Virus record (IMG/VR): IMGVR_UViG_3300027804_000045
Location: 64,001-128,000 of that record
Source: a virus
Length of the DNA: 64,000 nucleotides
Direction: 5' to 3' (one strand)
The notes beneath the pieces are model-generated. The model was not told where the DNA came from, searched no databases, and saw only the letters and a program-made list of their open reading frames with translations. A program made the position numbers and the translations under genes. Every line of letters starts with the position of its first letter. Within the stretch, counting starts at the first letter, position 1. Shown piece by piece: positions 17,845 to 62,722 of the stretch.

Positions 17845-18351
17845 TCACTTTAAAAATTCGTCAATCGACAAATCATAATACAAACTATTTATTTTATGAA
17901 TACCTATAAGATACAAAACAAAACTACTTACACTACTACCTCTACCCACTCCCCAAACTATCTTGTTCTGTCGCATAGTGTCGACCAAATATGTAAGATA
18001 TTTTAGAAGTTCAAACATGTTACGTTCTTGAAATAACAGTAGTTCTTCACCTGCTCTCTGTAACTCGGCTTCACTGTTGCATTTATCTAGCACGAATTGT
18101 GCAACGTCTAAATTTTTATAGAACTCAGGCATATACCAATTGTTTTGGTTAATCTTATCAAACTCTTCAACAGAAAGATTGATATCAAAACTTTTCTTAA
18201 GTATTGGAATATTTTCAAGTTCCAATATAGAAGGAATAGAAATATCGCTATCTGTTATTATAGTTTTGAAATGTCGTGTAGGATCGTTTAGATAAAGATT
18301 GCAAATGTCATCTTCACTTAAGATGATTTGCCCATATTTGTCTGTGTGCAT
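17845..18351 (-). CDS. dnaE: Family-C DNA polymerase (DnaE-like) N-terminal palm fragment
   Basis: R..EEL...Y...VD......WGVGRGSSVSSFVLYLIGI..I......L...EFL matches the DnaE GPGRGS region. Confidence 0.85.
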   Translation of the reverse strand: MHTDKYGQIILSEDDICNLYLNDPTRHFKTIITDSDISIPSILELENIPILKKSFDINLSVEEFDKINQNNWYMPEFYKNLDVAQFVLDKCNSEAELQRAGEELLLFQERNMFELLKYLTYLVDTMRQNKIVWGVGRGSSVSSFVLYLIGIHKINSLYYDLSIDEFLK

Positions 18352-18365
18352 TCAAATATTTTAAA

Positions 18366-18902
18366 TTATTTCTGCTTCCAAGTCAATTCTAGTTCTGCCC
18401 AATTATTTTTATCAAAAAGGGTCACGATTTTTTCTTTTTTATTTTTATCTGCTAATGCTAGAGTGTTTTTATTATACCAAGAATCTTCCGGGTATTCAAG
18501 TTTAGCGATCTCGCCTTGTATGTTAAATTTTATCAAATTACTCAATTTACTTCCAAAAGTAATATCAGTGATTACTATCCTACCTTCCATGATAGCATTA
18601 CATTTGTTTACAAGTAACATCCCTATTATCTGATCGTAAGGTTCTTCTGGTACTATGCAAACTTTTATACCAGCGTTTGTGTAATTTTGTATAGCTTCTT
18701 TTTCAGTGTTTTGTACAAATATGACATCTTCGATTTGGCCTGTAAGAAAGTAATTCATACGTTCAATGGCGATGTTTTGTTCGCGCACATCTTCAGTACA
18801 AACTTCCATTTTTGCATTCATCTCATATAGATTTACCATATACTTTGATTCAAAGTGAATGGCAGTCATAAATGTAAAATCTTTTTCTATTTGTATGTTC
18901 AT
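18366..18902 (-). CDS. Conserved phage hypothetical protein
   Basis: ORF. Confidence 0.7.
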   Translation of the reverse strand: MNIQIEKDFTFMTAIHFESKYMVNLYEMNAKMEVCTEDVREQNIAIERMNYFLTGQIEDVIFVQNTEKEAIQNYTNAGIKVCIVPEEPYDQIIGMLLVNKCNAIMEGRIVITDITFGSKLSNLIKFNIQGEIAKLEYPEDSWYNKNTLALADKNKKEKIVTLFDKNNWAELELTWKQK

Positions 18903-19135
18903 TTGGATTTCTTGTCGATAACAACTTGAGTAGTGATGTTTTGCTTTTTAATTAAATCATCCATCTTTTTAGTATAAGCATTACGGTAACTTTCTAAAGC
19001 CATTTGTATTTGGTTTATAAGTTGCCTGTGATTCGCTCTATACGCAAAGTTTAGTTTAGCCGACAAATTACTTATGTCAGTTTGTAGTTCTTCTAAACTT
19101 TTATTGGATAAATCGTTTACGAAAGGATGTTCCAT
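18899..19135 (-). CDS. Small helical hypothetical protein
   Basis: ORF, ATGA overlap. Confidence 0.65.
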   Translation of the reverse strand: MEHPFVNDLSNKSLEELQTDISNLSAKLNFAYRANHRQLINQIQMALESYRNAYTKKMDDLIKKQNITTQVVIDKKSK

Positions 19136-19138
19136 AAA

Positions 19139-20431
19139 TTAGAACGGCTGTAGTGGAATCCTGCGAAAGATGTCCGGACCATCATAGACAGTATAATCAA
19201 AGTCTACGTTACCTGACGTTACTGAGGTAATACCTTGGTACTCAGGACCTGCTACACCATTATTTCTAGTTGTGCTGATCGTTATATTAGGACCGCTAAC
19301 GCTCTTAATATAATAAGGATATCCGATCTCAACACCTGCTAAGTTTCCTGTAGGGTCATCCGTCATGAAAATAATCGGATAATTCACAACTAAATTCGCT
19401 GTGCTACCTGATACAGTAATTATATTTGGACCAGTAGTGCTAGTTATGCTTCTATTAATAGCATTAGCACTATAATCATCAACAGCAACGTATATGTAGC
19501 TTATAGGATTTAAATACATGTTACCTGATGAAGTCGATAGAGTTACGTTTGCTGTTAATGTCGTCGTATCTGATACTGTAAATGTTGTACCTGATACTAG
19601 GTTTCTCACATAATATGTGTTTGATGTTGAAATACCACCGAATACCGAACCAGTAAACTGTAAGGGCATACCTGTATATAAGGTTGCTGTATTGGCAGTA
19701 GTGAATATATCAGAACCGGTCGTTGTGTTTGTTACTTTAAGTTGGCTCACGCTATCGGGAACATATATCGTGCCATTAGTATCACCCAATCTGCCTGTGC
19801 TTGGAGGCACACCATATTGTATTGATGTACTCTTAAATGGTCTGTTGCTTGGAGTTATATCGACTGTATTTCCGCAATCTGTTGTTGTGAGCAATAAGTT
19901 AATTTTTGTGCTACCATAAGGGAAAGTCAATGCAGGAGTGTTATTTGCTAGCACATAATTTTCTAACAATTCAATACTTCTAAATGGTGTGTCGCTTGGG
20001 AAAAATATATAAACATCAACATTAGCATTAGCTCTTGCTAAATTTAATTCTACATGTCCTTCTGTATTTGTAGGCGCCCAGCTACCGAAATTTAATGTGA
20101 TATTACCTGCCAATGTACCGTACTGTACGTCTCCTAAAGTACAATCAATCAACACATTACCTACAAGGGCATTGCCTAAATTGTATGTAGTAGCGCGAAA
20201 CTGAAGCGTAGACGCATTGGCAATTAGAGTATTTGCCATGTCATTGTTTATGACTGTGTTGGCTAATGCTGATTTTAACACTGCCTTATTTTGTAAATCG
20301 CTTATTTCACTGCCTGCAATGTCAAGATTTTGTTTGATATTAACAAAATTGTTACGAAATCCCTGTGTACTATTGTTTTGTCCAGGAATCGGGTAATTGA
20401 CATCTAGGCTGTTTGTGTTAATGCTACTCAT
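19139..20431 (-). CDS. Tail/baseplate structural protein
   Basis: YPIPGQNNSTQGFRNNF N-terminus, N/T/G-rich beta repeats, TATAAATA upstream. Confidence 0.65.
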   Translation of the reverse strand: MSSINTNSLDVNYPIPGQNNSTQGFRNNFVNIKQNLDIAGSEISDLQNKAVLKSALANTVINNDMANTLIANASTLQFRATTYNLGNALVGNVLIDCTLGDVQYGTLAGNITLNFGSWAPTNTEGHVELNLARANANVDVYIFFPSDTPFRSIELLENYVLANNTPALTFPYGSTKINLLLTTTDCGNTVDITPSNRPFKSTSIQYGVPPSTGRLGDTNGTIYVPDSVSQLKVTNTTTGSDIFTTANTATLYTGMPLQFTGSVFGGISTSNTYYVRNLVSGTTFTVSDTTTLTANVTLSTSSGNMYLNPISYIYVAVDDYSANAINRSITSTTGPNIITVSGSTANLVVNYPIIFMTDDPTGNLAGVEIGYPYYIKSVSGPNITISTTRNNGVAGPEYQGITSVTSGNVDFDYTVYDGPDIFRRIPLQPF

Positions 20432-20470
20432 GTGTTAAATTCCATAATGTATTTATATATGCTATACCTA

Positions 20471-23392
20471 CTATAAATTATATTGGCTAGATTTTGGTAA
20501 AATAGTCTTGTTCGGGAATATCACATAAAAATCACTTGAATCGGCTGGATCAGGTGGTGGTGTAGCACTAGGATATTCTGACCAAGTTGGTGTAGCAAGC
20601 AATGTATCATAATTATATGTGATTTGCTTATTGACAGAGAATCTATCTATCTCAAAATCAATCTCATTAAGCGTGAATGGCCATTCAGTTTGAATGCGTT
20701 CTTGTATGATCTCAGCATAACTAATTGGATCAAACACTCCAGACATATTCCCGGTCTCTGTGACCAATTTATAAGTAATGCCATTTTTAGAAGTACTTAA
20801 AATAATAGCGTTTGGATATCCCGGAGCTCCTATCTGTTTGATATAATAAGTTGCTCCGCTGACGATATTTCCAAAAGTATTACCTGAGAACACGATTGGT
20901 TTGCCTACGACTAGGTTAGAAACATCATCTACTATAACCGCATATATTTGTAATGTGTCATTTCCTATCGTTTGAACTGATGTCACATTAACTGATTCAG
21001 CAGGTCTAGTATAGGCTATCACCCAAGCAGGAGTAAAGCCTAATGTATTGCCGTCACGCTGTTGACTAGTCATCCATAATGGTAATAATCTAAAATTACT
21101 ATTTGACCCCAACTCTTGCTCTACACGTAAACGCATATTATCTAAACTATTAGGATATAATATTCTAGCATATCCTGGGGTCAAACTAGTATAGAATGTA
21201 GGTATGCCGCCATTTAGTAATAATGGTATGCCGTCTTGAGTCAACAAAGAATACTCACGGAAATTAGTAATTATTTCAGCTTCTTGATTAAATATAAAGC
21301 TTGTGTAGATTTCTGTGCTTGTAGTATACCAAGGTCCTAAATTTAAATCGATGAATCTTGGCCAAAATATTTCTTCTGGTATGCTAGTACTGTATCTATA
21401 ATCAATGCCGAATTCAGGATCATATACAGCTAGATTATCTACGATATTGCTGTATACGACTTCGTAAATAATATTATTGTTTTCATCTCTAGCGACGGCA
21501 GTGCTTAACTGTCCTAATGTCACATCTCTCCAATAATGATTTTTCTTGACTGCTTCTAGATACTCAGCAAGATTGCTAGAGTTGATGCCATATGCATGTG
21601 CATAGGTCACGTTCTTAGCTTTACCAAAATTTGGATCTATTGGTCTATACAAATATTCTTCTGGTATTAGTTCCGGATCAGTTAATAATGAACTTATGAT
21701 GTCTCTATCTTTAGCAGTAGGAGTGCATTTAATATATAAGTTGTCTGTAGGTTCGCTATATTCTTGATATACAGTTATCGTGAATGTTTTTGTGCTAGTT
21801 ATAAAAGATGATAGAGTCGGATCAATTGCTTTTGCCGTGACACTAAAAGTAAACGTTGCTGAATCATTCTGTAGTTGGTAATTGTCACTAGGTTGATATG
21901 CTACTATGCCTATTATTTCACCGTCATCAAGTAAAGTCAAATTAGGCGGCAATGAACCTGATTCTAATACATATTCTAAATCTACATCAGATGTTGCTTT
22001 AACTTTAAAGTAACTTAAAGATGCATTATATATTTGTCCTAAATCACTGTCTGTTATCCATTTGACAGTGCCTGAAATTCCATTACTAACTTTAAAACTA
22101 AAATTAAAGTCAACACTATTATATGTGCTAAGTCCTACAGTTTTAAATGTTCTAGCTAAAAAAGTATATTCTTCAATTGAGTTAGGCGCGGTGATAGGAT
22201 TACCGTATAACCATCCTGTAGTACCATCATAGTTCAACCAAGGAGGCTGTCCGTCAATGATATAATTCAGTTGTTCACCATCAAAATCATAACCTAATAA
22301 ATGAAAACTAAAAAAATTGTCGCTTTGAAATTCGCCTATGTATGCATTTTGAGTAGGATTATAAGTAATGCCGGGGGGATTGACAGAGCCTGCAGGTGGT
22401 AATACATAATAACCATAATCTATTTCATTGGATTCAATATCATAAGTCGATGGTCTTGTATTTAAAATTGTAGGTATTCTTGTGCCTACTGCTTTACCAG
22501 GACCGCCCTGGCTGGGACTCAAATTTTGATTTACAACTGTTATAGCATATGATGCCCTGTCGTTGCCTTTTTCACTCAAAAGATCAAGAGTAAAGTTATA
22601 CTGACGTTTAGTCGGGTTGCCTATTGATGTCGCGGGCAAAGTCACATCCATGAACCCTGCTGCTGTATCTACTATAAAAGTATCAGCTCCTGGCGCTATA
22701 GAAATTGTAATTTGTGTAGCGTTGATAATACTTTTAATATAATATACGTCTCCTGAAACTATCCCGCCAAAAGTTGTTCCTGTAAAAACTATAGGTCTAT
22801 TGATGACAAAATCATTAGTGCTTAACACTGTTATAGAATTATTTGTGTTGTCGGAAGCAAATGCTGATGTATCAACTTCCGGCAAGTTAACTTGAGACGT
22901 AGGCGGAGTCGGATAACCGCGAATAAGTCCAAATTCATTTATTTCTAATCCTGGAGGCAATTGACCTTGCAATACACGTATCAATACTTCGTTCGTAGAT
23001 ATAGGATTAGAGTATTCGATAGGAAACTCAATCCATGTGCTATCTTCCGTAGTAAACAACAGTCCCTCAGGAGTTGTAAATAGTGGAGTTGCCTCTCCTG
23101 TTATTGTTATACTGAATGTTCTATCTTTAAATGCTGTGTTTGTTCCATCACTAGCGGTTACACGAACAACAAATTCGCTACTTATGTCATTAGTAATGAC
23201 TTGAGGAGTTCCAGAAATTTTACCGTCTTTTCGAAAAGAAAGTCCTTCTGGCAAACTACCGCTTATTATTTCAAATTTAGTAATAGTATAGGGTAGTTCT
23301 GCTATCGCAGCAAGACGATAGACCATAGCAACTTCAGCAGGGTATACACCGATGATACCTGATGCTGTAACCCATGTGATTGGATTACTCAT
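20471..23392 (-). CDS. Baseplate/tail protein with Ig-like (He_PIG-type) repeats
   Basis: Repeated G.LP.GL......G.I.G.P. Confidence 0.7.
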   Translation of the reverse strand: MSNPITWVTASGIIGVYPAEVAMVYRLAAIAELPYTITKFEIISGSLPEGLSFRKDGKISGTPQVITNDISSEFVVRVTASDGTNTAFKDRTFSITITGEATPLFTTPEGLLFTTEDSTWIEFPIEYSNPISTNEVLIRVLQGQLPPGLEINEFGLIRGYPTPPTSQVNLPEVDTSAFASDNTNNSITVLSTNDFVINRPIVFTGTTFGGIVSGDVYYIKSIINATQITISIAPGADTFIVDTAAGFMDVTLPATSIGNPTKRQYNFTLDLLSEKGNDRASYAITVVNQNLSPSQGGPGKAVGTRIPTILNTRPSTYDIESNEIDYGYYVLPPAGSVNPPGITYNPTQNAYIGEFQSDNFFSFHLLGYDFDGEQLNYIIDGQPPWLNYDGTTGWLYGNPITAPNSIEEYTFLARTFKTVGLSTYNSVDFNFSFKVSNGISGTVKWITDSDLGQIYNASLSYFKVKATSDVDLEYVLESGSLPPNLTLLDDGEIIGIVAYQPSDNYQLQNDSATFTFSVTAKAIDPTLSSFITSTKTFTITVYQEYSEPTDNLYIKCTPTAKDRDIISSLLTDPELIPEEYLYRPIDPNFGKAKNVTYAHAYGINSSNLAEYLEAVKKNHYWRDVTLGQLSTAVARDENNNIIYEVVYSNIVDNLAVYDPEFGIDYRYSTSIPEEIFWPRFIDLNLGPWYTTSTEIYTSFIFNQEAEIITNFREYSLLTQDGIPLLLNGGIPTFYTSLTPGYARILYPNSLDNMRLRVEQELGSNSNFRLLPLWMTSQQRDGNTLGFTPAWVIAYTRPAESVNVTSVQTIGNDTLQIYAVIVDDVSNLVVGKPIVFSGNTFGNIVSGATYYIKQIGAPGYPNAIILSTSKNGITYKLVTETGNMSGVFDPISYAEIIQERIQTEWPFTLNEIDFEIDRFSVNKQITYNYDTLLATPTWSEYPSATPPPDPADSSDFYVIFPNKTILPKSSQYNL

Positions 23393-23401
23393 TTTTTATC
23401 C

Positions 23402-25453
23402 TCAAGCATAAGTTGCGCCAACTGTATACCATTGCGTAGTAGTTGGGGCAACATACTGAATTGTAGAACCTGCTGGTTGTGTGAATCCAGCATTAGTAGA
23501 CAGTGTATTAATTATACCACCACTAGCAGGATATACTAATAAACTATTAGCACTTGTATTCGTTATAGTAATTACCATACCTGCAACTGCTGTAGGTAGT
23601 ACTACACCTTGACCAGTTGACACTGTTGAGACAACATCTATTTCTTTTGTAAGTGCTGTGGCTGTACCCTGTGTTGATCCTGCGGCACTTATACCGGTAG
23701 CCACGCTGCGTATATGATAAGATGTTACAGTTACATTTGCTCCGCTTATATTACCTGATGTAGTGAGTGAAGTCAACGTACCTACCGAAGTGATGTTTGG
23801 TTGTGCCGCTGTTGTTACCGTACCTGCTGTAGTTGCGCTTCCTACAGTGCCTGTCACATTCGCGCCCGCAATATTTGTAAGGCCTGCACCATTGCCATAA
23901 TATGCGCCTGTATTGACAATTACGTTACCGGTAACAGTTACATTGCTGTTTGTCTTATTAAACGTAAAGTTAGCATTACCGTTGCCAACACCATTGTCAT
24001 TAAATTGAACTTCAGTATTTGCACCGCCTATTGCACCAGCTGGGCCAGTCGCTCCTGTAGGTCCCACGATACCAGTAGAGCCTTGTACACCTGTTGCACC
24101 TGTAGGTCCTAGATCTCCTGTAGCACCTTGAATACCTGTCGCTCCTGTCAGACCTGTAGCACCGACTGGACCTTGAATGTTTCCTACGTCACTCCATACT
24201 CCGCCGGCTTTCACCCACAAGTCTCCAGTATCTTCAGCAATGACACCATTGCCATCAACTGCGCTAGGGAATGCCGCGTTTAGAGTTGCTTGAGGAGTAC
24301 CACCTACTGTAGGAACGCTTCCTATGATTGTTACACTAGTACCTGCTGGGCCAGTAGCGCCTGTAGGGCCTGCGACACCAGTCGCACCTGTCGGGCCAGT
24401 CGCACCTACTCCAGTAGCACCAGTTGGACCCGTTAAACCTGTACTACCTGTTGGGCCTGTTATGCCAGTAGCACCAGTAGAACCTTGCGGTCCTGTAGCA
24501 CCAGTCGCACCTGTTGGGCCACCGCTTGGGCCAGTAGAACCAGTAAGTCCCGTCGCCCCAGTAGCACCAATACCGGTCGCCCCGGTTTGGCCACCTGCTG
24601 ATATAGCGGCATAACCTGTCACTGAACTTGTGAATGTCAATGTAAGCGTATTAGCCGTATTGAATGTGATTGTAGGATAGTCATATCTACCTACAAAACT
24701 ATTACCAGTGCTATCAACTGGTTCAACGTTCACATATAAACTGTTGAGATTGTGAGTTACGTTCCACGTTGTCGATGACGAACTTTGTGTGTGGATGTAT
24801 GCGCCGCCAGCTGCACCTGTAGCGCCTTGTGGACCAGTAGCGCCGGTTGCACCAGTTAAACCAGTAGCACCCATTGGTGTAAATATATTGACTGTCCAAG
24901 GCGTATAAGGACCAGTACCACTACCCTGTCCACCTGTCACATTTACAACTAATGCACCTGTCGCTATATTATATGACTGAACTACACCAGTCATATATTT
25001 GTCTGTCTCACCGTCAGCAATGAAAATAATATTTTGAAAGGCAACGTAGGGTAAACCGGTATCTACTGTGCAAGAAATAGTCGACGGAATCTCTAGATTG
25101 ATTGATGCTGTTGTGCTTGTTTGATAATCAAGCATAGGTCCAGTAGCACCCATGCCACCATAACTTATCGCGGCATATCCTGTTTGCGGTGACGCAAAAG
25201 TAATAGTAAGTGTATTAGAATTTAAAAAGCTTATAGTAGGATAAGTAAGAGGGCTTACATTTTGATTTGCACTATCAATTACTTCAACGTTAAGATATCG
25301 CTCTCCCAAATTATGATTTACAGTCCAAACTGATGCTGCCACTAATTGTTCGTGGGTGTAGGTACCACCTGTTGGGCCAGTAGCGCCTTGAACACCGGCT
25401 ATAGCCGGTAACCATGTTGATGTCAAACTATCGTAATATTTTAATACACCCAT
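23402..25453 (-). CDS. Collagen-repeat tail fibre/whisker protein
   Basis: (G-A-T)/(G-P-T) triplet runs; two H.Q...S..W.V.HNL domains. Confidence 0.8.
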
Positions 25454-25481
25454 AATATTCTACTATTTATTGACCTATATG

Positions 25482-27878
25482 TTATGCGTAACTTGCTCCG
25501 ACTGTATACCACTGTGTCGCGCTTACAGCAAAGTACTGTAAACTTGCACCGGCTACATGAGTATAAGCTGTGTTGGTCGACAACGTATTAATCGTTGCGC
25601 CTGTTGCTGGATATACGTTTAAACTTGTCGCGCTTGTATTATTAACTATGATTACCATACCTGCAATTGCTGTAGGTAATACAATACCTTGCCCTGCACT
25701 TACTGTGCTTACAATGTTTATATCTTTTGTTATTGCTGTCGCTGTGCCTTGTGTTGATCCGGCAGCACTAATACCAGTCGCTACACTTCTTAAGTAATTA
25801 CCACTTAAAGATATATTTTCTGTCGTCAGAGTATTAGTATCTGTGCGATATGTTAGATCAACATCTCCACGCAAAATCTGATTAGTTGTTCTGTTCTCAA
25901 CAAATGTAGGATAATATGTTGTTGTTAACCCATTTGTATTTGTTATATCGATAGTAGTAGCATTAGACAATGCAGGACCAGTAGCACCTGTTGCTCCTTG
26001 CGGACCTGTTGGGCCTCCTGCAGGACCAGCTGGGCCAGTCGCACCTGTCGCACCTATACCCTCAATACCTGGCGTGCTAGTATCATACCATAATACAGTT
26101 GTATCTACGGGTTGAGTAGGTCCTTCAACTAAACCTGCTACACCAGTAGCGCCAGTCGCTCCTGTGCTACCAGGTATACCTGCCGCTCCAGCTAGATTTA
26201 CCTGCCAACTACTGTACACATTACCTAATGTGCCTACTACACTAGATACGCTAACTATCATCACTCCTGTTGCACTGTTATATGCGGCAACAGTAGCAAA
26301 CATACGTTGCGCTAAACTATGCGCAATAGAAATTTCTTGACCGGTAGCGTATGCTAAACCTATACCTACTGTCAATGTTGCTGGTCCGGTAGCGATAGTA
26401 AGTGATGTATTACTTGTTGTGAAATATCTATCGCCAGTAGCACCAGGAACACCTGTCGCTCCAGAAACACCAGTAGCACCAGTAGCACCGAGACCTGTAG
26501 CGCCTTGTGGACCAGTAGCGCCGGTAGCGCCTATACCTGTAGCGCCTTGTGGACCAGTAGCGCCGGTAGCGCCTATGCCACCTATACCCCAAGTTAGATT
26601 TCCGGTGCCGTCTGTGGTTAATACTTGTCCTGATGCGCCACCAAATATTTGAACTTTATTAGCATAACCTAAGTTTGCTATGCCACCAGTCACATGTAAA
26701 TTAGGTGTTGTTAGTTCAACATTTAAATAAATTTCATCTATATATCCAACATGACCATTTGCGAGAATATCTGTATCAAACGTTGTTTGTAATTGTCCAA
26801 ATTGTACTACATTTGGTTGTGCGTTTACTGAAATAGTAACGTTACTATTGGGGTATACGCGAATATTTGATGAACCGTTTTCAATTTCGGTAATATTACC
26901 GATAGATAGATTTGATAATCCGCCACCGTCGCCAACAAAATATGTTGCGTTAACATTACCGATCACATTTAAATTACTATTAGCAGCATTAAAAATTAAA
27001 TTAGGACTTGCTGCAAAATTATTGCTACCATCATTATATTGAATTTGACCTGCGCCGCCAGCTGGATATTGTAAATCCCAAGGTAGGCCATTTGCATATA
27101 ATAAGTTATCAGTGCGTACATTGCCTGCGCTGACTGATGATGCATTGACAAAATTTGCTTGAGCAAGATTGCCTAAATTTGCGTTACCGGATATTATGTT
27201 TCCTGCTGTTAATAATCCAGTGACATTTGCTGTAGCAATATTGGCTGTATTCGTAACAGTTAAATTTGAAGTGCTTACAACATTTGAAGCATTAATATTT
27301 GCCGCGTTAACAGTATTAGAAATATTAGCAATATTAGCTGTGATAACATTACCCACAGCAAGATTAGCGTTGCTAGTTATGTTATTTGCTAATATGTTAC
27401 CTGTAACGTTAAGAGTAGTTAGGTTTCCTACATTACCGAAAAAGTTTGTTGCTGTGATGTTGTTTGTCGCTACAACATTGCCGTTAGCGATTGTGACATT
27501 AGGATTGCCCGGACTTATATTGCCTATAATCAGTGATTCGTTGATAACTGTATTGTCAAGCAAATCAATCCATAGATTTGACAACCCTGAATCGATAATG
27601 ATTTGATCTAATTCAGATCCTGGAGTTAATCCTACGCCTAAACTTTGTGTTTTTACTTTTAGTTGATAAAAGTCGTTACTGATGATAACATTACCAAAAG
27701 TGGGATTTACGGTTAAGCCCTTCTCTTTTTTGGCACGATTGATGGATAAGACGCCGCTAGATGTCTGTAATTGATATAATTCATTAAAGTTTTCTTGTGC
27801 TTTTTGAAACCCAGTGCGTATCGCATCTGCATCTGGATCATCGGGAAAACTACCGAAATCTATATTCTGCTGTGCCAT
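25482..27878 (-). CDS. Collagen-repeat tail fibre protein with T4 gp9/gp10-like N-terminal attachment motif
   Basis: I..G..PDD...D.IR..F.K...NF.ELY, ANI-type repeats, GAT collagen. Confidence 0.8.
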   Translation of the reverse strand: MAQQNIDFGSFPDDPDADAIRTGFQKAQENFNELYQLQTSSGVLSINRAKKEKGLTVNPTFGNVIISNDFYQLKVKTQSLGVGLTPGSELDQIIIDSGLSNLWIDLLDNTVINESLIIGNISPGNPNVTIANGNVVATNNITATNFFGNVGNLTTLNVTGNILANNITSNANLAVGNVITANIANISNTVNAANINASNVVSTSNLTVTNTANIATANVTGLLTAGNIISGNANLGNLAQANFVNASSVSAGNVRTDNLLYANGLPWDLQYPAGGAGQIQYNDGSNNFAASPNLIFNAANSNLNVIGNVNATYFVGDGGGLSNLSIGNITEIENGSSNIRVYPNSNVTISVNAQPNVVQFGQLQTTFDTDILANGHVGYIDEIYLNVELTTPNLHVTGGIANLGYANKVQIFGGASGQVLTTDGTGNLTWGIGGIGATGATGPQGATGIGATGATGPQGATGLGATGATGVSGATGVPGATGDRYFTTSNTSLTIATGPATLTVGIGLAYATGQEISIAHSLAQRMFATVAAYNSATGVMIVSVSSVVGTLGNVYSSWQVNLAGAAGIPGSTGATGATGVAGLVEGPTQPVDTTVLWYDTSTPGIEGIGATGATGPAGPAGGPTGPQGATGATGPALSNATTIDITNTNGLTTTYYPTFVENRTTNQILRGDVDLTYRTDTNTLTTENISLSGNYLRSVATGISAAGSTQGTATAITKDINIVSTVSAGQGIVLPTAIAGMVIIVNNTSATSLNVYPATGATINTLSTNTAYTHVAGASLQYFAVSATQWYTVGASYA
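26493..26576. repeat. Perfect 42 bp tandem duplication in the collagen region
   Basis: acctgtagcgccttgtggaccagtagcgccggtagcgcctat x2. Confidence 0.9.
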
Positions 27879-27932
27879 CTATCCAGTATCCTTTAATATA
27901 GTATTTATCGTTTTTATAGCAAAGCAATTGCC

Positions 27933-27965
27933 AAAAAAATACCCGGTGATTAGCCGGGTATTTTT
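27933..27965. terminator. Intrinsic terminator
   Basis: AAAAATACCCGG...CCGGGTATTTTT. Confidence 0.85.
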
Positions 27966-27983
27966 AACTATATTAACGACAAA

Positions 27984-46770: not shown

Positions 46771-46773
46771 TTC

Positions 46774-52171: not shown

Positions 52172-52213
52172 AGTTGTACTTACACCGGTAGTACAACTAT
52201 TTATGCTTTTATA

Positions 52214-53220: not shown

Positions 53221-53260
53221 TTCAATACATTATAGTGCAATTGTTGTATAAAAACAACTT

Positions 53261-53596: not shown

Positions 53597-53599
53597 TAC

Positions 53600-54295: not shown

Positions 54296-54341
54296 AAAAT
54301 AAATCCCGAGTTATAATAATATATTTATCACAATTCCTAGA

Positions 54342-54779
54342 TTATAAATCCTGATTGTCCTTATATTTTCTGCTTTGAATATGCTTGCTTAAAGCTGTAT
54401 AAGTATTGATTTCTTCTAGGATCTTACGTTTTTTAAGTTTTGCTTCTTGCAGTTTAGCACTGTAAATTGATGAATTTTCACATTTTTTATCTACCAATCT
54501 GGTGTGATTTTGTATAGCAGCATCCAAACTTACTAGTTCATTATCTAATTCTAACACCCTTCTGACATCTTTATAGTTCTTATTATTATTTAAAACACAC
54601 CAAGTTACAGCATGTTTTAAAAAATAGAAAACATAAAAAGTATCTTCTCCTCTCTCCTGAAGTAGATACTCTCCATCTTTATTTTCTATTAAGTAACGAC
54701 CAAACAGGTTATAGGATCCGTCATCCTCACGGACTATAAAAAGATCCTTGATCTTAGTTTTTATATCTGTTTTTGTCAC
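54342..54779 (-). CDS. Hypothetical protein
   Basis: Probable GTG start immediately after the upstream stop. Confidence 0.65.
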   Translation of the reverse strand: MTKTDIKTKIKDLFIVREDDGSYNLFGRYLIENKDGEYLLQERGEDTFYVFYFLKHAVTWCVLNNNKNYKDVRRVLELDNELVSLDAAIQNHTRLVDKKCENSSIYSAKLQEAKLKKRKILEEINTYTALSKHIQSRKYKDNQDL

Positions 54780-54780
54780 T

Positions 54781-55224
54781 CTAGTATTTAACAAAGTATA
54801 TGTTTCTTTTCGCATTTGTTATATCCAAGTTACTATCAATGTTCGGCCATTGGGTGTCACATTTGACCATAGGAACTTCTTGGCAATCTTTATACAAATA
54901 TCCTAATTCTTCTATCCCATCCTCAAATACTGAGGCGTGTTGCACTTCAAAATCAAAAGTCCATACGGGAATCTTATTGTCCGTATAATATATACCAAAC
55001 TTATGATTTGAAATATCAGATAAGCACAATCGCTTAGGATCAGAACTAATATCCGGCTGTGATCTTAAAGAAATCACTTGTAAAATAGTATCAAAATTGC
55101 ATTGCGTGTTTCTTTTACGAACCCATTGAGCAACATCATCTATATCATCTCCCGGCTTTGCTCTATTAAGAGTACCGGTCCTTGTGATATCAAATAATGT
55201 GTAGCAAGCAATTCTATGAGACAT
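54781..55224 (-). CDS. Conserved hypothetical protein
   Basis: TLFDIT.TG, RN.Q.N..T..Q..SLR; GTAAATA 4 nt upstream. Confidence 0.7.
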   Translation of the reverse strand: MSHRIACYTLFDITRTGTLNRAKPGDDIDDVAQWVRKRNTQCNFDTILQVISLRSQPDISSDPKRLCLSDISNHKFGIYYTDNKIPVWTFDFEVQHASVFEDGIEELGYLYKDCQEVPMVKCDTQWPNIDSNLDITNAKRNIYFVKY

Positions 55225-55241
55225 GCCGTATTTACAGCAAT

Positions 55242-55271
55242 AAAAAAGCCCGAGAATTTTACTTCTCGGGC
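55242..55271 (-). terminator. Intrinsic terminator
   Basis: GCCCGAGAA...TTCTCGGGC followed by TTTTTT. Confidence 0.85.
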
Positions 55272-55298
55272 CTCATTCGTCTCAACTAAAACTAACTA

Positions 55299-55688
55299 TT
55301 AGTTAGTGAAAGTTGCTGATGCTGCTGTAGTTACAGCATAGCCTAGAGCTGCTGTTAGTGCAACGTCTAAACTACCGCCGTTAGCAAAGTCCCATGCGCC
55401 TACTGGATATACTGCAACTGCTAGTGTATCAGTGTTTGCACCTACTTCAGTATATTCATATAGATATACTGTTGCTAATTGCTGAATAGTTTGGAAAGCA
55501 ATTGCTAGGTCTGCACCACTTGGTGATGCTGCGCCTGTGAATGTAACTGTACCGAAGTCCAACTTTGGACCTTGTGGCTGAACTGTCTTACCTGAATTTA
55601 CAGCATTTAGACCAGCGTTTGTATATTCTGGTGCGTCTAAGTGTAATACCTGTTGAAAGTCGCCATTGACTTTTGTAAATTGTGCCAT
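55299..55688 (-). CDS. Small, probably abundant virion protein (decoration-like)
   Basis: Own late promoter (55736-55743), 5' hairpin TGAACC/GGTTCA, GGAG RBS and terminator. Confidence 0.55.
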   Translation of the reverse strand: MAQFTKVNGDFQQVLHLDAPEYTNAGLNAVNSGKTVQPQGPKLDFGTVTFTGAASPSGADLAIAFQTIQQLATVYLYEYTEVGANTDTLAVAVYPVGAWDFANGGSLDVALTAALGYAVTTAASATFTN

Positions 55689-55770
55689 TTTCTAAATCTC
55701 CATATTAGTTTGAACCCCTGTGAGGTTCATACTATTATTTATGCCTGGCTTTAAAAAATATGGTTTTGGG

Positions 55771-56913
55771 CTATTGTTTTGCGGCTAAATTTTGACGGCT
55801 GAAACCCAATCTATCTACATATTTTAGCCCCTGACAGACAAATCCTTCTTGGCTTTGCTGACCTGACTGTAGATAGCCCTTGACCGGGCTTTGTTCCGCA
55901 GCTTGATTTAATTGTTCGACAAGATTCATTTTAAGTTGATAGATTGCAGCCCAAATTGTAAACAGCCCTACTATGCCTTGTTTGTTATTATTAATATGGT
56001 CAGCTAGTTTTTTCTTCATACTGTCTGTCATAGGTCTTTCTTCAAAATAAGTTAAAAAGTCATCACTTAAATTTGAAAGATTGTTAGCAATAATTTTCTT
56101 GTTTACATATGTTGTGAATAGTTGACTAAAACTATTTCTGGCTTGCGGTGCTGTATTAAGCAATTGCTCTACAGCCCTGCCATATTTAGAAATTTTCTTT
56201 TTAGCATCGGTAATTAACGATTTATCTAATGTTATTGTAGGAACTATAGGCATCGCGCTAGGAAGTATTGCTACATCACTATTATTGATCAAGCCTCCTA
56301 ACGTACCATCTAGACTTTGAGCATCATTCGTACTTATAGCATCGGGTGCTATATATTGGTGTACCGCAACTCCTGCTATCTTGTTGCTTAAAAGTTTACC
56401 TACATCGCTATCAACATCGACTGTATAAGTTATACCGTTAGGATTCGCTTTAAATTTATAAAAACCCTTTTGGTTTTTGAGCGGCTGGTTGAAGAGTAAG
56501 TCGCTCCAGTAATAGCCTTTTGTTCCTTTGCTTGCTTTTTGCAAACCGGGCCAGATATTCCTAATGAGATTCGTAAGTTCTGCACGATCAACACCTCTTT
56601 GTTTATCATATTCAGCAAATGCTTCTGGACTATAAATTTTACGTCCCATGCCATCTACACGGTTAAACATATGTTTATCCATGATGCTAAATTTGTTATT
56701 TGTACCCCTGCCGAAAATCAAGGCAGGATAACCGTCCCATTTAATTGTGATTGCTTGTGGATTTTGTGAACACGCTATGATAGAATTTACCGCTCTATCA
56801 GCGCCATTTACACCCTGTAGTATGACCAAATCTTCTGGATGGTCAAGATGGCCTTTCGCTTCAGTTAAAAGATCTTTTAAAATATTTCTTGTCTTAATGA
56901 AAAAGTCTAACAT
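55771..56913 (-). CDS. DUF6267-like conserved T4-type protein
   Basis: HLDHPED, KWDGYPA, EGFV, K.VDR..FS..N. Confidence 0.65.
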   Translation of the reverse strand: MLDFFIKTRNILKDLLTEAKGHLDHPEDLVILQGVNGADRAVNSIIACSQNPQAITIKWDGYPALIFGRGTNNKFSIMDKHMFNRVDGMGRKIYSPEAFAEYDKQRGVDRAELTNLIRNIWPGLQKASKGTKGYYWSDLLFNQPLKNQKGFYKFKANPNGITYTVDVDSDVGKLLSNKIAGVAVHQYIAPDAISTNDAQSLDGTLGGLINNSDVAILPSAMPIVPTITLDKSLITDAKKKISKYGRAVEQLLNTAPQARNSFSQLFTTYVNKKIIANNLSNLSDDFLTYFEERPMTDSMKKKLADHINNNKQGIVGLFTIWAAIYQLKMNLVEQLNQAAEQSPVKGYLQSGQQSQEGFVCQGLKYVDRLGFSRQNLAAKQ

Positions 56914-57743
56914 TAATAGGTGCCTGGTGACGTTCGTGCTTGGTTAGCCATCTCAATAGCCCAGGCTATATCAGCAATTTTAGCTAGGTCATCTTTCAAC
57001 GTGTTGTTTGCATAACTGTTAGGTAAGTTTTGAAGTATTGTGTTTATTTGTTCTACGCCTGAAGATAAGTCAATGCCTTTTAGGTATGGAGCAATAAAAT
57101 GATCTCTTGTCCATTGTGATATGCTCTTGACTTCTTCGTTAATAAGGCTTTCATACAACCTTTGCATTTTAATATATTGAATGGCTTCGGATAAAGATTG
57201 TGCTAAAAGTTTATCTAATAATACCTGGTAGTCAGGATTTGCTAATTGATTTTTGTCGTTTATCCAACCCTGCTTAGTTTTCGTATAATTAATACCATCT
57301 AATGGTACAACGATCGGTTTCCATTGTCCGGTTTCTTTATCCTGTCTCATTGTAGGCTTCAAACCAGGCTGTGCTTGTTGTTTTCTTGGTTGTCTTTGCT
57401 GTGTTGGTTGTCTTGGTTGTCTTTGCTGTCTTGATCCGGATTGCTGTGTTTGCTGTTGTGATACCGAAGGTTCATCGCGTAGTGTTGGAAAATTCCCTGA
57501 CAATACATTTGACTGTGGGTCTAACAAACCTGCTTTTATAGCGGTGTTGATTGCATTTGCGCCGTTATTAACAAAGTTCTTAACAAAATTGTCGTATGCT
57601 AATTGCTGTTCTTTCGATAATCCGCTTTTGCGTCTGGCTTGCCAATTTTTAAAGGCACTAAAACCTGCAGGGGTATCTTTATTACCTTTAACACCCTTAT
57701 AAAGATTCTCTATATTATCGAGCCAGCCTTCACTTATCTTCAT
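56913..57743 (-). CDS. Hypothetical putative head protein with a Q/R/P-rich linker
   Basis: MKISEG N-terminus; QQRQPR repeats. Confidence 0.6.
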   Translation of the reverse strand: MKISEGWLDNIENLYKGVKGNKDTPAGFSAFKNWQARRKSGLSKEQQLAYDNFVKNFVNNGANAINTAIKAGLLDPQSNVLSGNFPTLRDEPSVSQQQTQQSGSRQQRQPRQPTQQRQPRKQQAQPGLKPTMRQDKETGQWKPIVVPLDGINYTKTKQGWINDKNQLANPDYQVLLDKLLAQSLSEAIQYIKMQRLYESLINEEVKSISQWTRDHFIAPYLKGIDLSSGVEQINTILQNLPNSYANNTLKDDLAKIADIAWAIEMANQARTSPGTY

Positions 57744-57978
57744 TTTTCTTTCTCAACGATTTAGCAAAGCGCGTTGGTTCTTTACTTTTAATAGCGGAAA
57801 GAAGTTTCTTTTCTAAAAGTTCAGCTTTTTCTGGACTGTAATTTCTATAAATCAATTCTACTAAATTAATAGCACTAGTAATCACGTTATTTGCTCTATT
57901 TTCAATTACGTGATTCATGTCTCTATTACTGCCTATAGACTCAAGTTCTTCCAGCAGACTACGTGTGCGCTTTTGCAT
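57730..57978 (-). CDS. Conserved small hypothetical protein
   Basis: MQKRTRSLLEEL; GATAAATA 7 nt upstream. Confidence 0.75.
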   Translation of the reverse strand: MQKRTRSLLEELESIGSNRDMNHVIENRANNVITSAINLVELIYRNYSPEKAELLEKKLLSAIKSKEPTRFAKSLRKKNEDK

Positions 57979-58008
57979 AATGTAGTATTTATCAACAAAC
58001 GGGTCGTT

Positions 58009-59412
58009 TTAATTCTTTAAATTGTTCAATAAACTACGTAGTTTTGCGCTCTGTACGTTAGCCTTTATATTCTTGTTTTCTTCTTCCATAGGGGCAATCT
58101 CGGTGTTTGTGCTGGATCCTATAGAACTAGTAGCCTTGATTTGGCTTAGTAGTTGACTTCCTGAAGGCTGGGGTTTAGGGGCACTCTCTCCATCATCTGT
58201 GATACGCAACGTCTCGACATCGAATTTGAGTTCGATTTTCTGACCTACCCCCGAACTACTACGTGTTTTCATCAACTGTATCTGATACAATCCACGCTCA
58301 CGCATACTACGACTTGTAAAGATACCAAATACGTTGTCTGCTGTATTGATCTTACTGATACCACCACTGATGTGACTATGATCAAACTCAATCTCTTCGA
58401 CCGCGCTACGATTCAACTGACTTGCTGTGACGAACAATACGTTCAATTCCTTAGCAAGGTTACGCAATTCTTCTGAAACATACTTGTCCTTGACGAACAA
58501 ATCGCTTGGGCTGACCTTTGCGCTTACGGGCATGATCAAGTCCAGATAGTCGATGCATAAAAAGTCACATCTCATACCTGTTTGTACTTGTAGTTCTTTT
58601 ACATATGCTCTGATATCGTTGACGTTGCTTTGTGCTGGCATATACTTGATGCGTAACTGACCAGCCTTCTTTGCGACCATCTTGACCTTCATTTCAACAT
58701 TGTCTAGATCCTTAAAGATTTCTCTTGTGCTAGTATCAGTCATCATACTATCCAATCGCATACTACACAAGCCCTCACTCAACTCAAGCGTGATGTATAC
58801 ACCATTCAGTCCATTCTGTACCCAGTTGACTGCAAGATTTTGCATGATCAAACTCTTACCAGAACCAGAACCACCTGCAAAGATTTGTAGTTCGCCGCGA
58901 TTGAAACCACCATATAGTTTCTGATCAAGTGTAGGCCAGCCTGTGCTGTTCTGTCCATTGTTTGATTTCAATGCCATCAAACGACCACGGGGATCAGCAA
59001 AGTAATCTGTACCCATGTCCTTCTGTAGAGAAATCTGAACAGCATCTTTGATCAGTTTCTCTACAGGTCCATACTCGCCCTTCTCAAGATGATCAGCACT
59101 CTTAAGAATAGCCCTCTCAAGTTCTTGTCGTTTAGTAAATGCCTCAAATTCTTCTAGAAACCAGTCATAGTGTCCTTCATCAAGTTCTTCTAGTCTGTCG
59201 ATACTGATATCTGTAGTTGCCTTGATTTGTACTGGCTCAGGCATGACATTATATTTTTTACTATGGTCGATAATAAATGATGCTACTGGACGCAATCTAC
59301 GATCAAAATTTTCAGCGTTCATGATATTCATGACACGAGTATATAATTCTGCGTTTGTGACCATCATACGCAAGAATAATGTTTGTACATCAATGTTGTA
59401 GTCGTTTATCAA
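58009..59412 (-). CDS. Replicative DnaB/gp41-like helicase
   Basis: GGSGSGKS, LE, IDYLD, TASQLNR, K.R. Confidence 0.93.
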   Translation of the reverse strand: MINDYNIDVQTLFLRMMVTNAELYTRVMNIMNAENFDRRLRPVASFIIDHSKKYNVMPEPVQIKATTDISIDRLEELDEGHYDWFLEEFEAFTKRQELERAILKSADHLEKGEYGPVEKLIKDAVQISLQKDMGTDYFADPRGRLMALKSNNGQNSTGWPTLDQKLYGGFNRGELQIFAGGSGSGKSLIMQNLAVNWVQNGLNGVYITLELSEGLCSMRLDSMMTDTSTREIFKDLDNVEMKVKMVAKKAGQLRIKYMPAQSNVNDIRAYVKELQVQTGMRCDFLCIDYLDLIMPVSAKVSPSDLFVKDKYVSEELRNLAKELNVLFVTASQLNRSAVEEIEFDHSHISGGISKINTADNVFGIFTSRSMRERGLYQIQLMKTRSSSGVGQKIELKFDVETLRITDDGESAPKPQPSGSQLLSQIKATSSIGSSTNTEIAPMEEENKNIKANVQSAKLRSLLNNLKN

Positions 59413-60367
59413 GTTGCTTCCTCTTTACTTCTACTTTGATCTTACTGTTTGTTGCTGATTGTAAGATACTTAGTAATGTAGCGACTTTTCCATATTTTAT
59501 TACGGCGTCGTTAACATCCTTTATATCATCTTCCCAATTTGGGATGCTGACATAGAACCCTAAATCTAATGCTCTATCGCAAATCTGTATTCCTGTTTTA
59601 TCTTGATCAGGTACTACGATCACTTTCTTGTTTAGATTCTTTATAATTTCTGCTTGCTGTTCGCTAATCGTATTGTGTGCCAATGCGCAACCATTAATAC
59701 TTAATGCGTCAAATATACCTTCTACAACGATACAGACGTTATATTCTGGTTTTTGTAAGTCAATGCCGAACACAAAACCCTGCTGCTGTTCGTTGATGAA
59801 CTTTGGCGTGCGATCATCTAAGTACCTACTAGTGTGACCCACTATTTTGTTTTCATATGTGTAGGGTATGATTACACGATTTGCCTGACGACCTTCACTA
59901 TCAGGTGTACACATGAAAGGATAATCGTTGATATTTATTTTTCTATTAGTCAAATAGTCAACATAAATTTTGTGTGTTGGATTATTAACATCAATTAATT
60001 CTGCTTCGGGCAAACTCATTTCTTTAAATTTAATTTTCGCTTTTTCACGTTTGACCTTTACAAAATCTAACAAATCTTTGTGTTGTAAACTTTCCAAACT
60101 ATATTTGTTGATATCATCTTTATCTAAACCACAATAAGATAATAATGTGCGTGTGTTTTTACTAATGCTACGACCTAACACAAAATTACATTTAAAGCCA
60201 CAATTAAAACAATGATAACTCCAGTTTTCACCATCAAACTTTATGCCACCTCTACTACGGCGATCGGCTTTATGTCCGCGATAATGGCAACAGACAGCAT
60301 TGAAACTTTGCCATCCGCTCTGCGTAACTTTTTTCTTGCCTGGAATCAGTTGAAGAATATCAAACAC
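59390..60367 (-). CDS. DNA primase (gp61-like)
   Basis: Zn finger (CC...HCFNC), EGIFDA, PDQD TOPRIM, KDVND. Confidence 0.9.
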   Translation of the reverse strand: MFDILQLIPGKKKVTQSGWQSFNAVCCHYRGHKADRRSRGGIKFDGENWSYHCFNCGFKCNFVLGRSISKNTRTLLSYCGLDKDDINKYSLESLQHKDLLDFVKVKREKAKIKFKEMSLPEAELIDVNNPTHKIYVDYLTNRKININDYPFMCTPDSEGRQANRVIIPYTYENKIVGHTSRYLDDRTPKFINEQQQGFVFGIDLQKPEYNVCIVVEGIFDALSINGCALAHNTISEQQAEIIKNLNKKVIVVPDQDKTGIQICDRALDLGFYVSIPNWEDDIKDVNDAVIKYGKVATLLSILQSATNSKIKVEVKRKQLDKRLQH

Positions 60368-60373
60368 TCAGTA

Positions 60374-60401
60374 ATTATAACAGAGTGTTGCGAAAAAACA
60401 A
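60374..60401 (-). promoter_or_regulatory. Extended -10 promoter (TGtTATAAT), leaderless primase
   Basis: -10 ends 6 nt before GTG 60367; TTGTTT 16 nt upstream. Confidence 0.55.
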
Positions 60402-60415
60402 ATACTATTGGTAAC

Positions 60416-61216
60416 TTATCTTGCCAAAATATTTGATACAGCACCAGTATTACTTGTGAATACCATTCTTACGAAAGGATGAAAACCCTTTATAGTATAT
60501 CCAACTGTTTCTGTTGTCTCTAAATAGGAATTGCCTGTGATAGGATACCAATCAGTGAGAGTGCTACTAAATGTTCCTTCGATCCCTACATCACCGTTGA
60601 ATTCATATAGATGTGCTTGTATAGTAAGTATAGGATTATCGTTAGTATTGATTACTGAACTATAATAAGTATTAGCGTTTGGTAATACGTTGTCGATACT
60701 ATTATTGCTATCAAGATTAGGGAAAGGTTGTCCTGTAGGAATCGTGACCATCTCGCTAGGTACGAAACTTGGAAGTACGCTATCTACGATGTTGATCTGA
60801 CCTCGGGCGCCGGCTGCAGGATCTACAAAAACGGGATATCCAAATTCCCCGACAGGAATCTCAAGGCTATAATGACACATCTGAGCTGGTATATCTTCTA
60901 ATTCAGCAGCATTAAGTTGAAGATAAGCTATACCAGTCAATGGTAATTCTAAAGTAAGGCCCTTACGTATCAATACTTCGGTACCATCATAGTTAATAAT
61001 ACGGCAAACGATGTTTTTGCCTGTAATATCGACTGGTTTCTGCTCTTGATTCAAGAACTGAAACTGTAGTTTATTGTCTACCCCTTTGTGTAGCATCATT
61101 GTTTTAGCATATACTGGCATAAAGGCCCTCGGACTGTTTCCTGATAATAGGATGACAATCTGACGCTGTGTAAAAATAAATGCTGCTGTTGAATATCCTA
61201 CGTTTGTTACAGTCAC
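60416..61216 (-). CDS. Virion structural protein (BppU-like N domain)
   Basis: KG.DN...F...N..QKPVDI; late promoter 61236-61243. Confidence 0.55.
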   Translation of the reverse strand: MTVTNVGYSTAAFIFTQRQIVILLSGNSPRAFMPVYAKTMMLHKGVDNKLQFQFLNQEQKPVDITGKNIVCRIINYDGTEVLIRKGLTLELPLTGIAYLQLNAAELEDIPAQMCHYSLEIPVGEFGYPVFVDPAAGARGQINIVDSVLPSFVPSEMVTIPTGQPFPNLDSNNSIDNVLPNANTYYSSVINTNDNPILTIQAHLYEFNGDVGIEGTFSSTLTDWYPITGNSYLETTETVGYTIKGFHPFVRMVFTSNTGAVSNILAR

Positions 61217-61293
61217 AGATTATCACTCCTAACTGTATTTATGAGTATAAAAATAAAATATTTTTATGGAAACCCAATTATAAATAATAATCA

Positions 61294-61677
61294 ATGACGA
61301 TTGCTAAAGATTTCTTTAAAAAATTGAGTGACAACCATCCATTCATCACGATTTTGTCATTCGCTGGCCAGGATTATGTAGGTATAGTTCAGAACCGCGA
61401 TGACCAATGCACCAGCATTTATGATTACGGATCTATCGTAGATTCTAAGTCTAAAGAGTTATTTCTAGAATTAGGTGAAGTTTGGTGGTGGGAAAGTAAT
61501 CGTCAAATTCCTATAAACATATTTCTGAAGCAAGAATGGGTTCTTTTTAAGCCCTATTTAAAAACTTTTAATAATAAAAACCTCGAAATACTACATGGTC
61601 CTATCGTTTGTTTAAGTGAGCTTAACAAACGTAGAACGAAAAGAAAAAGTATCACACTAGTAAAGAGATTTCCTTAA
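61294..61677 (+). CDS. Conserved hypothetical protein
   Basis: WWWESNRQIPINIFL; TATAAATA 7 nt upstream. Confidence 0.75.
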   Translation: MTIAKDFFKKLSDNHPFITILSFAGQDYVGIVQNRDDQCTSIYDYGSIVDSKSKELFLELGEVWWWESNRQIPINIFLKQEWVLFKPYLKTFNNKNLEILHGPIVCLSELNKRRTKRKSITLVKRFP

Positions 61678-62154
61678 TTTCTTCTTACGCCTGTTTTTGG
61701 CCATTTCTAAACTTAATTTTCCAACTCTTGTGTCAAAACACACACCGTCTAGATGATCTCTCTCATGTTGAAAAACTCTACCTATAATACCCTCAAACTC
61801 AGATATAATTTCTTCCCCTAAAGCATTATAATATTTTACTTTTACTTTTTCATAACGTTTTACGTTAAGCCATAGATTAGGGAAACTTAGACATCCTTCT
61901 TGGTCCATATACTCGCCTGTACCTTCTAATATTTCAGGATTAATGCAGGCGAATAATTTTTGTTCGTTACCCATGACAAATATTCTTTTAAGTATACCGA
62001 CTTGGGGACCGGCTAAACCAATACCGTTATTCTCCATCATTGCTTTTGCCATGTCTCTGATAAGCTCTGTAGGATCTCCGTCTGAATTGAAGTCCCAAGG
62101 TGTTGCTTGCTGTCTTAATACTTCATCGTTTTCTTTGACTAGTTTAATTTCCAT
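61657..62154 (-). CDS. def: Peptide deformylase
   Basis: GIGLAGPQ, EGCLS, QHERDH. Confidence 0.95.
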   Translation of the reverse strand: MEIKLVKENDEVLRQQATPWDFNSDGDPTELIRDMAKAMMENNGIGLAGPQVGILKRIFVMGNEQKLFACINPEILEGTGEYMDQEGCLSFPNLWLNVKRYEKVKVKYYNALGEEIISEFEGIIGRVFQHERDHLDGVCFDTRVGKLSLEMAKNRRKKKLRKSLY

Positions 62155-62722
62155 TTTCCACCAATAGATTCATGTGTACTACAACTAGATGTGCGTATGC
62201 GATACTATGTGATTTTTTAAATACATATCCGCCTACATCTTTTTCCCAGACTGTTTGTGCAATTTCTTTCCAGCTTTTGCCTATCAAATGTTTTTTACCA
62301 GGACGAATGATCGCAAGAAACATCGCTAATCTTGGAATGCTGTTTATAGGTTCAGGCATAGTTTGCATTTGATTAAAGTGATTGCCTAAATGTATTAATT
62401 GCTCGACAAAATTTTTATCGTTTAGTTTATTCCAATCTGGTTCGCGCATCAAAGAAATTAGATGATCTTCGTCTCGTACCATATTGTATACATGAACGTT
62501 GAGTAAATCTAATTTGATATATCCCCTATCTTCGGCTTCTTCGTAGTCCAATGATGACATATCATTTATAGGATCATAGGGAATATCAGTCACATAAATT
62601 CCTGTGTTATGCTTACGTGTATCCTGTTTACGTATGCTTGCTTTGATATTAGGTATGATAGATAAGATTTTATCTCTATCACCCAAGTCAATATCGATGT
62701 CGCTATTAAATTTCATTGCCAT
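62144..62722 (-). CDS. dnaE: Family-C DNA polymerase (DnaE-like) catalytic C-terminal fragment
   Basis: DIDID, KH..G, GYIKLDLL, IRPG, GYVFKKSH..AY. Confidence 0.88.
   Translation of the reverse strand: MAMKFNSDIDIDLGDRDKILSIIPNIKASIRKQDTRKHNTGIYVTDIPYDPINDMSSLDYEEAEDRGYIKLDLLNVHVYNMVRDEDHLISLMREPDWNKLNDKNFVEQLIHLGNHFNQMQTMPEPINSIPRLAMFLAIIRPGKKHLIGKSWKEIAQTVWEKDVGGYVFKKSHSIAYAHLVVVHMNLLVENGN

Follow-up and report, generated by a model that had tools for sequence, protein, structure and literature searches.

Do two short genes, lying 43.8 kb apart on the same strand of a viral genome, together encode a single miniaturised family-C DNA polymerase? The question is raised by a 64,000-nucleotide stretch of viral DNA (hereafter the window), which comprises bases 64001–128000 of the 150,743-bp IMG/VR viral contig IMGVR_UViG_3300027804_000045 (CheckV completeness 43%). 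A first-pass annotation, made from the sequence alone, had proposed that a gene product of 168 amino acids (aa), piece A, and one of 192 aa, piece B, constitute such a two-piece enzyme. Both open reading frames (ORFs) were found intact on the minus strand with the motifs it had quoted (Table 1), and the proposal itself is supported by the predicted fold and invariant residues, by the co-occurrence of the two genes under purifying selection, and by a naturally fused homologue. A and B are very probably the two subunits of a phage-specific split minimal Pol III alpha that marks the group 2.2 jumbo phages (those resembling Rak2, 121Q, PA5oct and Atu_ph07). Complete relatives of the source virus in IMG/VR measure 353–360 kb, and the virus itself is therefore a jumbo phage; its best cultured matches are Atu_ph07 and the PA5oct-like and Rak2-like phages, with window proteins 38–49% identical to those of Atu_ph07, PA5oct and RaK2.

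Piece A matched the Pfam family DNA_pol3_alpha (PF07733) above threshold (8e-10, profile positions 19–94) as well as PHROG 11127 (9e-42). The structures of A and B were each predicted singly with AlphaFold and superposed with VIA-align. In the model of A, which reached a predicted local distance difference test (pLDDT) score of 87.5, residues 69–168 superposed on E. coli DnaE 278–393 (Z 8.5–8.8), Mycobacterium tuberculosis (Mtb) DnaE1 307–413 (Z 10.3), Thermus aquaticus (Taq) Pol III alpha 296–455 (Z 8.7) and the PolC-type structures 9QRN/9QPC 823–964 (Z 10.0–10.3), while among the 48,161 representative chains searched, the best unrelated fold scored only Z 3.1. The GVGRGSS loop of A aligned with E. 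coli GPGRGSG, and its residues G134, G136, R137, G138, S139 and S140 were invariant in the 36–37 homologues in which loop conservation was scored. All orthologues of A ended at one and the same ...EF[LI]K stop position.

As a single sequence, piece B yielded no match in Pfam or among the PDB sequences, and placing it took both a profile and a fold model. It belongs to PHROG 11778 ('DNA polymerase', 4e-60), and a profile built from 84 diverse B homologues matched E. coli DnaE 539–641 and 739–769 (E 9e-6). In the AlphaFold model of B (pLDDT 95.4), 182–189 of the 192 residues superposed on the references, namely Mtb DnaE1 415–807 (Z 9.1), a PolC-type enzyme 966–1300 (Z 7.8) and, with B 1–192 as a whole, Taq Pol III alpha 457–837 (Z 9.6) and E. 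coli DnaE 395/397–780 (Z 8.7); the best unrelated fold reached only Z 3.7. Both models, A and B, thus aligned to family-C polymerases and to no other fold family. Across the 84 homologues, D8, D10, K70, D72, R140 and P141 of B were invariant, K143 was nearly so (at least 90%), and D12, K169 and H172 were conserved in at least 90%. As had been claimed, B holds all three catalytic Asp positions: D8, D10 and D72 are the counterparts of E. coli D401, D403 and D555, the catalytic triad throughout the C family (PMC3919608). H172 corresponds to E. coli H760, the proposed steric gate against ribonucleotides (PMC8485763).

The 5′ ends of the two genes each showed a feature of their own. The ATG of A lies 6 nt past a promoter-like TTGACT-17-TAAAAT and is not preceded by a Shine-Dalgarno sequence (18352–18386, minus strand), because of which the A mRNA may be leaderless. 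The third codon of B is an ATG that overlaps the TGA of the upstream ORF as ATGA (62713–62722, minus strand), and a close homologue starts there. Translation of B may begin at this third codon, and the overlap suggests that it might be translationally coupled to the upstream ORF.

The claim that A stops where B begins was examined on the superpositions, in which one to three residues separated the end of A from the start of B in each of four reference structures (E. coli, Mtb, Taq and PolC-type). In E. coli numbering, A ends at 393 and B begins at 395/397. B packs E. coli 397–780 into its 192 residues, with the thumb (~432–510) and about 100 finger residues (~642–738) gone, and stops short of the HhH, clamp-binding and OB domains. 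A PHP domain (PF02811) was not matched anywhere in the 43%-complete record, whereas the control was positive in 14 of 14 genomes; nor did the model search return a PHP-like structural match for the 68 residues that precede the palm in A. HHH_6 likewise had no match in the record, and the finger domain PF17657 matched only a different gene, an unsplit 559-aa DnaE described below. Compared with a canonical DnaE or PolC, A and B together retain the three Asp, the GS loop, the KSH motif and a Pol-beta-like palm with fingers, but lack the PHP domain, thumb, full fingers, (HhH)2, clamp-binding region and OB domain, in line with the losses that the first-pass annotation had listed.

An exhaustive representative search revealed a protein in which the two pieces are joined. 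This protein, P0290, is 375 aa long and stems from a 2.4-kb ENA contig. Its residues 8–180 belong to the A family (PHROG 11127, 5e-33; 31% identity to A of the window over its whole length) and its residues 190–374 to the B family (PHROG 11778, 4e-47), and the full-length DnaE profile runs unbroken over the joint. A word-indexed search for longer fused proteins had returned none, but its sensitivity was limited, as P0290 was later found exhaustively. Downstream of P0290 lies an antisense ORF of phrog_11637, a family that also adjoins B in the window, in Atu_ph07, in PA5oct-like phages and in RaK2; P0290 sits at the B locus. In a poorly resolved tree of the B family, P0290 grouped weakly with the stand-alone B proteins (Shimodaira–Hasegawa-like approximate likelihood ratio test, SH-aLRT, 83). 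As a Rosetta-stone protein, P0290 argues for a single enzyme formed by A and B.

Both genes are under strong purifying selection. Against close relatives, the ratio of nonsynonymous to synonymous substitution rates (dN/dS) was 0.052 for A at dS 0.53 and 0.038–0.050 for B at dS 0.63–1.15, so that the relaxed selection for which a check had been advised was not seen in either gene. In metagenomes, A formed at least 7,988 and B at least 4,464 clusters (both lower bounds), with near-constant lengths of ~168 and ~190 aa, respectively. Among cultured phage records, A was present in 92 and B in 96, with matching counts when compared by genus, and the matches listed were all Rak2-, 121Q-, PA5oct-, Atu_ph07- or SCTP-2-type jumbo phages. 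In these cultured phages the two genes lie 30–224 kb apart and are never adjacent; in an uncultured 93-kb relative they are spaced 43 kb, with the same neighbours as in the window. From IMG/VR, 16 A-bearing records were sampled, including two 100%-complete genomes. B was also present in 11 of them, both complete genomes included, and absent from five, of which four are fragments rated 25–35% complete and one is 80% complete.

Taken together, the models point to a cut that would pass through the Pol-beta-like nucleotidyltransferase core. A would provide the helical part, which carries the triphosphate-binding GRGS loop, and B would provide the beta-sheet with the three metal-binding Asp, together with a short fingers core carrying RPG and the KSH steric gate. 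With the GS loop on A and the Asp triad on B, an active enzyme would therefore need both chains, and these would associate non-covalently, without an intein, into one catalytic centre. Such a non-covalent heterodimer with a composite active site is highly probable.

Several other explanations for two such gene pieces can be weighed against this heterodimer. The split DnaE of Synechocystis and Nostoc sets a precedent for halves that are spliced post-translationally by a split intein. In the window, however, the C-terminus of A and the N-terminus of B consist wholly of DnaE structure, aligning to the contiguous DnaE residues 393 and 395–397. They leave no space for an N-terminal intein half (IntN) of ~100 aa or a C-terminal one (IntC) of ~35 aa and offer no Cys/Ser/Thr +1 context. 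Because the termini are fully accounted for in this way, there is no intein, as the first-pass annotation had stated, and splicing can be regarded as ruled out by sequence. Scarcely any more credible is the view that A and B are what remains of a full-length dnaE in decay: about 800 residues have indeed been lost relative to DnaE, but the dN/dS values of 0.04–0.05, the invariant catalytic residues, the fixed lengths and stop position over thousands of clusters, and the retention of both genes from enterobacterial to rhizobial jumbo phages all speak against decay, and on the strength of the purifying selection we rejected pseudogene remnants. It is also very unlikely that the two proteins act separately, B as a stand-alone nucleotidyltransferase and A as, for example, a chaperone or a clamp-loader partner. 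The genes do reside in different modules and at a distance from each other, and one large relative carries A without B, but their near-perfect co-occurrence, the natural fusion and the colinearity of the junction with DnaE argue for joint action, and neither half holds a full active site.

A further alternative accepts that A and B assemble, but not into a templated DNA polymerase. They would then act as a terminal transferase or tailing enzyme, in end modification, or in making a nucleotide signal or counter-defence molecule. This is compatible with the absence of the thumb and of all DNA-duplex- and clamp-binding domains, and the Pol-beta superfamily does contain many transferases that are not polymerases, with MenT/TENT appearing as weak rows among the structure matches. 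We nevertheless consider it improbable, as the fingers core specific to the C family, RPG and the KSH gate are conserved, the strong structural matches are all replicative Pol III or PolC enzymes, and both genes lie in replication-gene blocks. Some observations do weigh against a split Pol III alpha. Without the thumb and ~100 finger residues, the enzyme might no longer be capable of templated synthesis, and the fused form is known from a single 2.4-kb contig. For the N-terminal 68 residues of A, a structure search with the model of A as a whole gave no convincing fold match, only weak partial CheY-like ones (Z 2.4–2.8); this domain is kept across the environmental clade and in P0290 and is divergent in cultured phages. 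Finally, the co-occurrence that the first-pass annotation had proposed to check was upheld by the genus counts and by the 11 IMG/VR records, but not by the 80%-complete genome G012 (locus L086, 288,815 bp), in which A and a family-B polymerase were present and B was not detected; its B gene may belong to the 20% that is missing, or G012 may be one of a few genomes with A alone.

If A and B do form a split Pol III alpha, the conserved steric-gate His would imply the use of deoxynucleoside triphosphates (dNTPs), and dNTP-dependent DNA synthesis is, from the conserved residues, a likely activity. The priming role that had been suggested earlier is unlikely for the same reason, as H172 points to dNTP use. 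Lacking the thumb, PHP, HhH/clamp-binding and OB domains, the enzyme should be distributive and non-proofreading. It would work beside a T4-type family-B replicase, as the record contains a clamp loader, a primase and a DnaB-like helicase of the T4-type replisome, and a 904-aa family-B polymerase, for which a check had been proposed, is encoded 13 kb upstream of the window (and in 14 of the 16 relatives). Given that the B block holds the primase and helicase and the A block the clamp loader, the most likely role would be that of an accessory replisome polymerase for short-patch synthesis, which might, for example, extend primers ahead of a hand-off or fill gaps; this distributive accessory role is speculative, and we give it somewhat less than an even chance. 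A more specific version, in which A and B form a second replisome polymerase that is tied to the primase-helicase and extends primers by a short stretch of DNA before handing them to the family-B replicase, is rather unlikely. If true, labour would be divided much as with Pol alpha or with B. subtilis DnaE, and the C-family catalytic core involved would be the smallest known.

Table 1. Coordinates of pieces A and B, their motifs and the flanking gene blocks within the window.
Feature	Position	Strand	Basis
Piece A, 168 aa; candidate NTP-binding N-terminal half of a split minimal Pol III alpha	17845..18351	-	Intact ORF, PF07733, PHROG 11127
A residues 1–68, small beta-alpha-beta-beta N-terminal domain	18148..18351	-	Model pLDDT 80–91
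A residues 69–168, first part of DnaE palm	17848..18147	-	VIA-align superposition
GVGRGSS loop, A 134–140; triphosphate-binding GS motif of Pol-beta-like nucleotidyltransferases	17932..17952	-	Invariance, alignment
Piece B, 192 aa; candidate metal- and template-binding C-terminal half, with remaining palm and cut-down fingers core	62144..62722	-	Intact ORF, PHROG 11778, model
DIDID, B 8–12, = E. coli D401, D403, D405; first strand of model	62687..62701	-	B-family conservation, profile alignment
KLD, B 70–72, = E. coli K553-F-D555; third catalytic Asp	62507..62515	-	Profile alignment to KFDFLG
RPGK, B 140–143, = E. coli FRPG motif 638–641	62294..62305	-	Profile alignment
KKSH, B 169–172, = E. 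coli N757-K758-S759-H760, including steric-gate His	62207..62218	-	Profile alignment
Conserved block 3′ of A: 105-aa ORF, GroES/gp31-like gene, gp44-like clamp loader	16194..17834	-	PHROGs
Conserved block 3′ of B	58009..61677	mixed	tblastn against B loci of Atu_ph07, Paride and RaK2
Antisense phrog_11637 ORF, 127 aa, function unknown	61294–61677	+	PHROG match
266-aa ORF in B block, between phrog_11637 ORF and primase			
Primase, B block	59390–60367	-	
DnaB-like helicase, B block	58009–59412	-	
Peptide deformylase, between B and antisense ORF	61657–62154	-	

The neighbours named in the first-pass annotation, a clamp loader near A and primase, helicase and a DEDDh exonuclease near B, were correct. 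The order of the block 3′ of A was the same in Atu_ph07, Paride (PA5oct-like), 121Q and the 93-kb relative (with an ORF of ~110 aa), and the block 3′ of B was likewise shared with Atu_ph07, Paride and RaK2. The DEDDh exonuclease lies two genes upstream of B in the window and was considered as a proofreading partner, a candidate that was dropped because it is not beside B in Atu_ph07, Paride or RaK2. The peptide deformylase gene, an insertion 3′ of B in this lineage, shares an overlap of 11 bases with the B stop. The 93-kb relative has this gene too, whereas it was not found at that position in Atu_ph07, Paride or RaK2.

The other polymerase genes of these phages showed variation of their own. 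In two relatives, G002 (L018) and G005 (L044), the family-B polymerase matches fell in two open frames (560+417 and 577+421 aa, respectively) instead of one of ~900 aa, a pattern suggestive of a split polymerase or else of an intron or intein, for which some T4-like phages offer known examples. The source record itself contains a third polymerase gene, the PHP-less 559-aa DnaE mentioned above (G000:C1:54889–56568, plus strand, 7.4 kb before the window; L001:1444–3123), which is unsplit and carries full Pfam palm and finger domains, all three catalytic Asp and a C-terminal extension. Its local identity to A and B is ~22–24%, and the B profile detects it weakly (3.8e-7). It was absent from all 16 relatives searched, including the two complete genomes, and its only close phage homologue, at 37.6% identity, was found in the 484-kb LR756508.1, where A and B are missing. 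It appears unusual for a single phage to combine a family-B polymerase, a split minimal Pol III and a compact DnaE.

How A and B relate to other family-C polymerases can be summarised from their domain composition. With DnaE (E. coli 2HNH/5FKW, Taq 3E0D, Mtb 7PU7) and PolC (3F2B) they share the palm, the GS loop, the D401/D403/D555 triad, RPG, the KSH helix and a colinear order; they differ in being two polypeptides, in comprising ~360 rather than ~1160 aa, and in lacking the PHP domain, thumb, ~100 finger residues, (HhH)2, clamp-binding motif, OB and tau-binding domain. The split DnaE of cyanobacteria is likewise a family-C enzyme from two distant genes, but it is full-length and covalently rejoined by its split intein at a different site, whereas A and B are intein-free and would associate non-covalently. 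The compact phage DnaE proteins (the 559-aa gene and its LR756508.1 homologue) have the C-family palm and fingers in common with A and B and likewise lack a PHP domain, but each is a single chain. B. subtilis DnaE, which Sanders et al. in 2010 are said to have found working with PolC in a two-polymerase replisome, is likewise a proofreading-free C-family polymerase beside a main replicase and offers a possible analogy for primer extension next to the primase; the analogy is functional only, as the main replicase here is of family B.

The closest counterpart is the split minimal Pol III alpha that was described in group 2.2 jumbo phages by Iyer, Anantharaman, Krishnan, Burroughs & Aravind (2021, Viruses 13:63; PMC7824862), who noted its occurrence beside a family-B enzyme and proposed that it serves in strand-specific synthesis or in repair. 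That family likewise comprises two separate proteins whose genes lie far apart, the N-terminal unit binding NTP and the C-terminal unit binding Mg and template, with the same absence of other Pol III domains and the same family-B polymerase and T4-like replisome. All of these features were found for A and B, in a record that is 43% complete and also holds the unrelated unsplit DnaE. Piece A was already annotated as Pol III alpha in the Atu_ph07 paper, and our searches of the literature turned up no biochemical work building on the 2021 description. The split enzyme is thus already published, and the present window is a further example, which differs from the described members in coming from a large uncultured clade with a well-conserved N-terminal domain in A, in the additional 559-aa DnaE of its genome, and in having a fused relative, which the 2021 paper does not mention. 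New here are the fused form, the exact junction, the conserved synteny of A with the clamp loader and of B with primase-helicase, and, for this genome alone, the additional unsplit 559-aa DnaE.

With the split minimal Pol III, a very large and mostly uncultured clade of jumbo phages conserves the smallest natural family-C polymerase core. The junction, the residue map and the single-chain P0290 could guide work on PA5oct, RaK2, 121Q and Atu_ph07, with P0290 providing a tractable minimal C-family polymerase. More broadly, these findings bear on the origin of the accessory domains in C-family polymerases.

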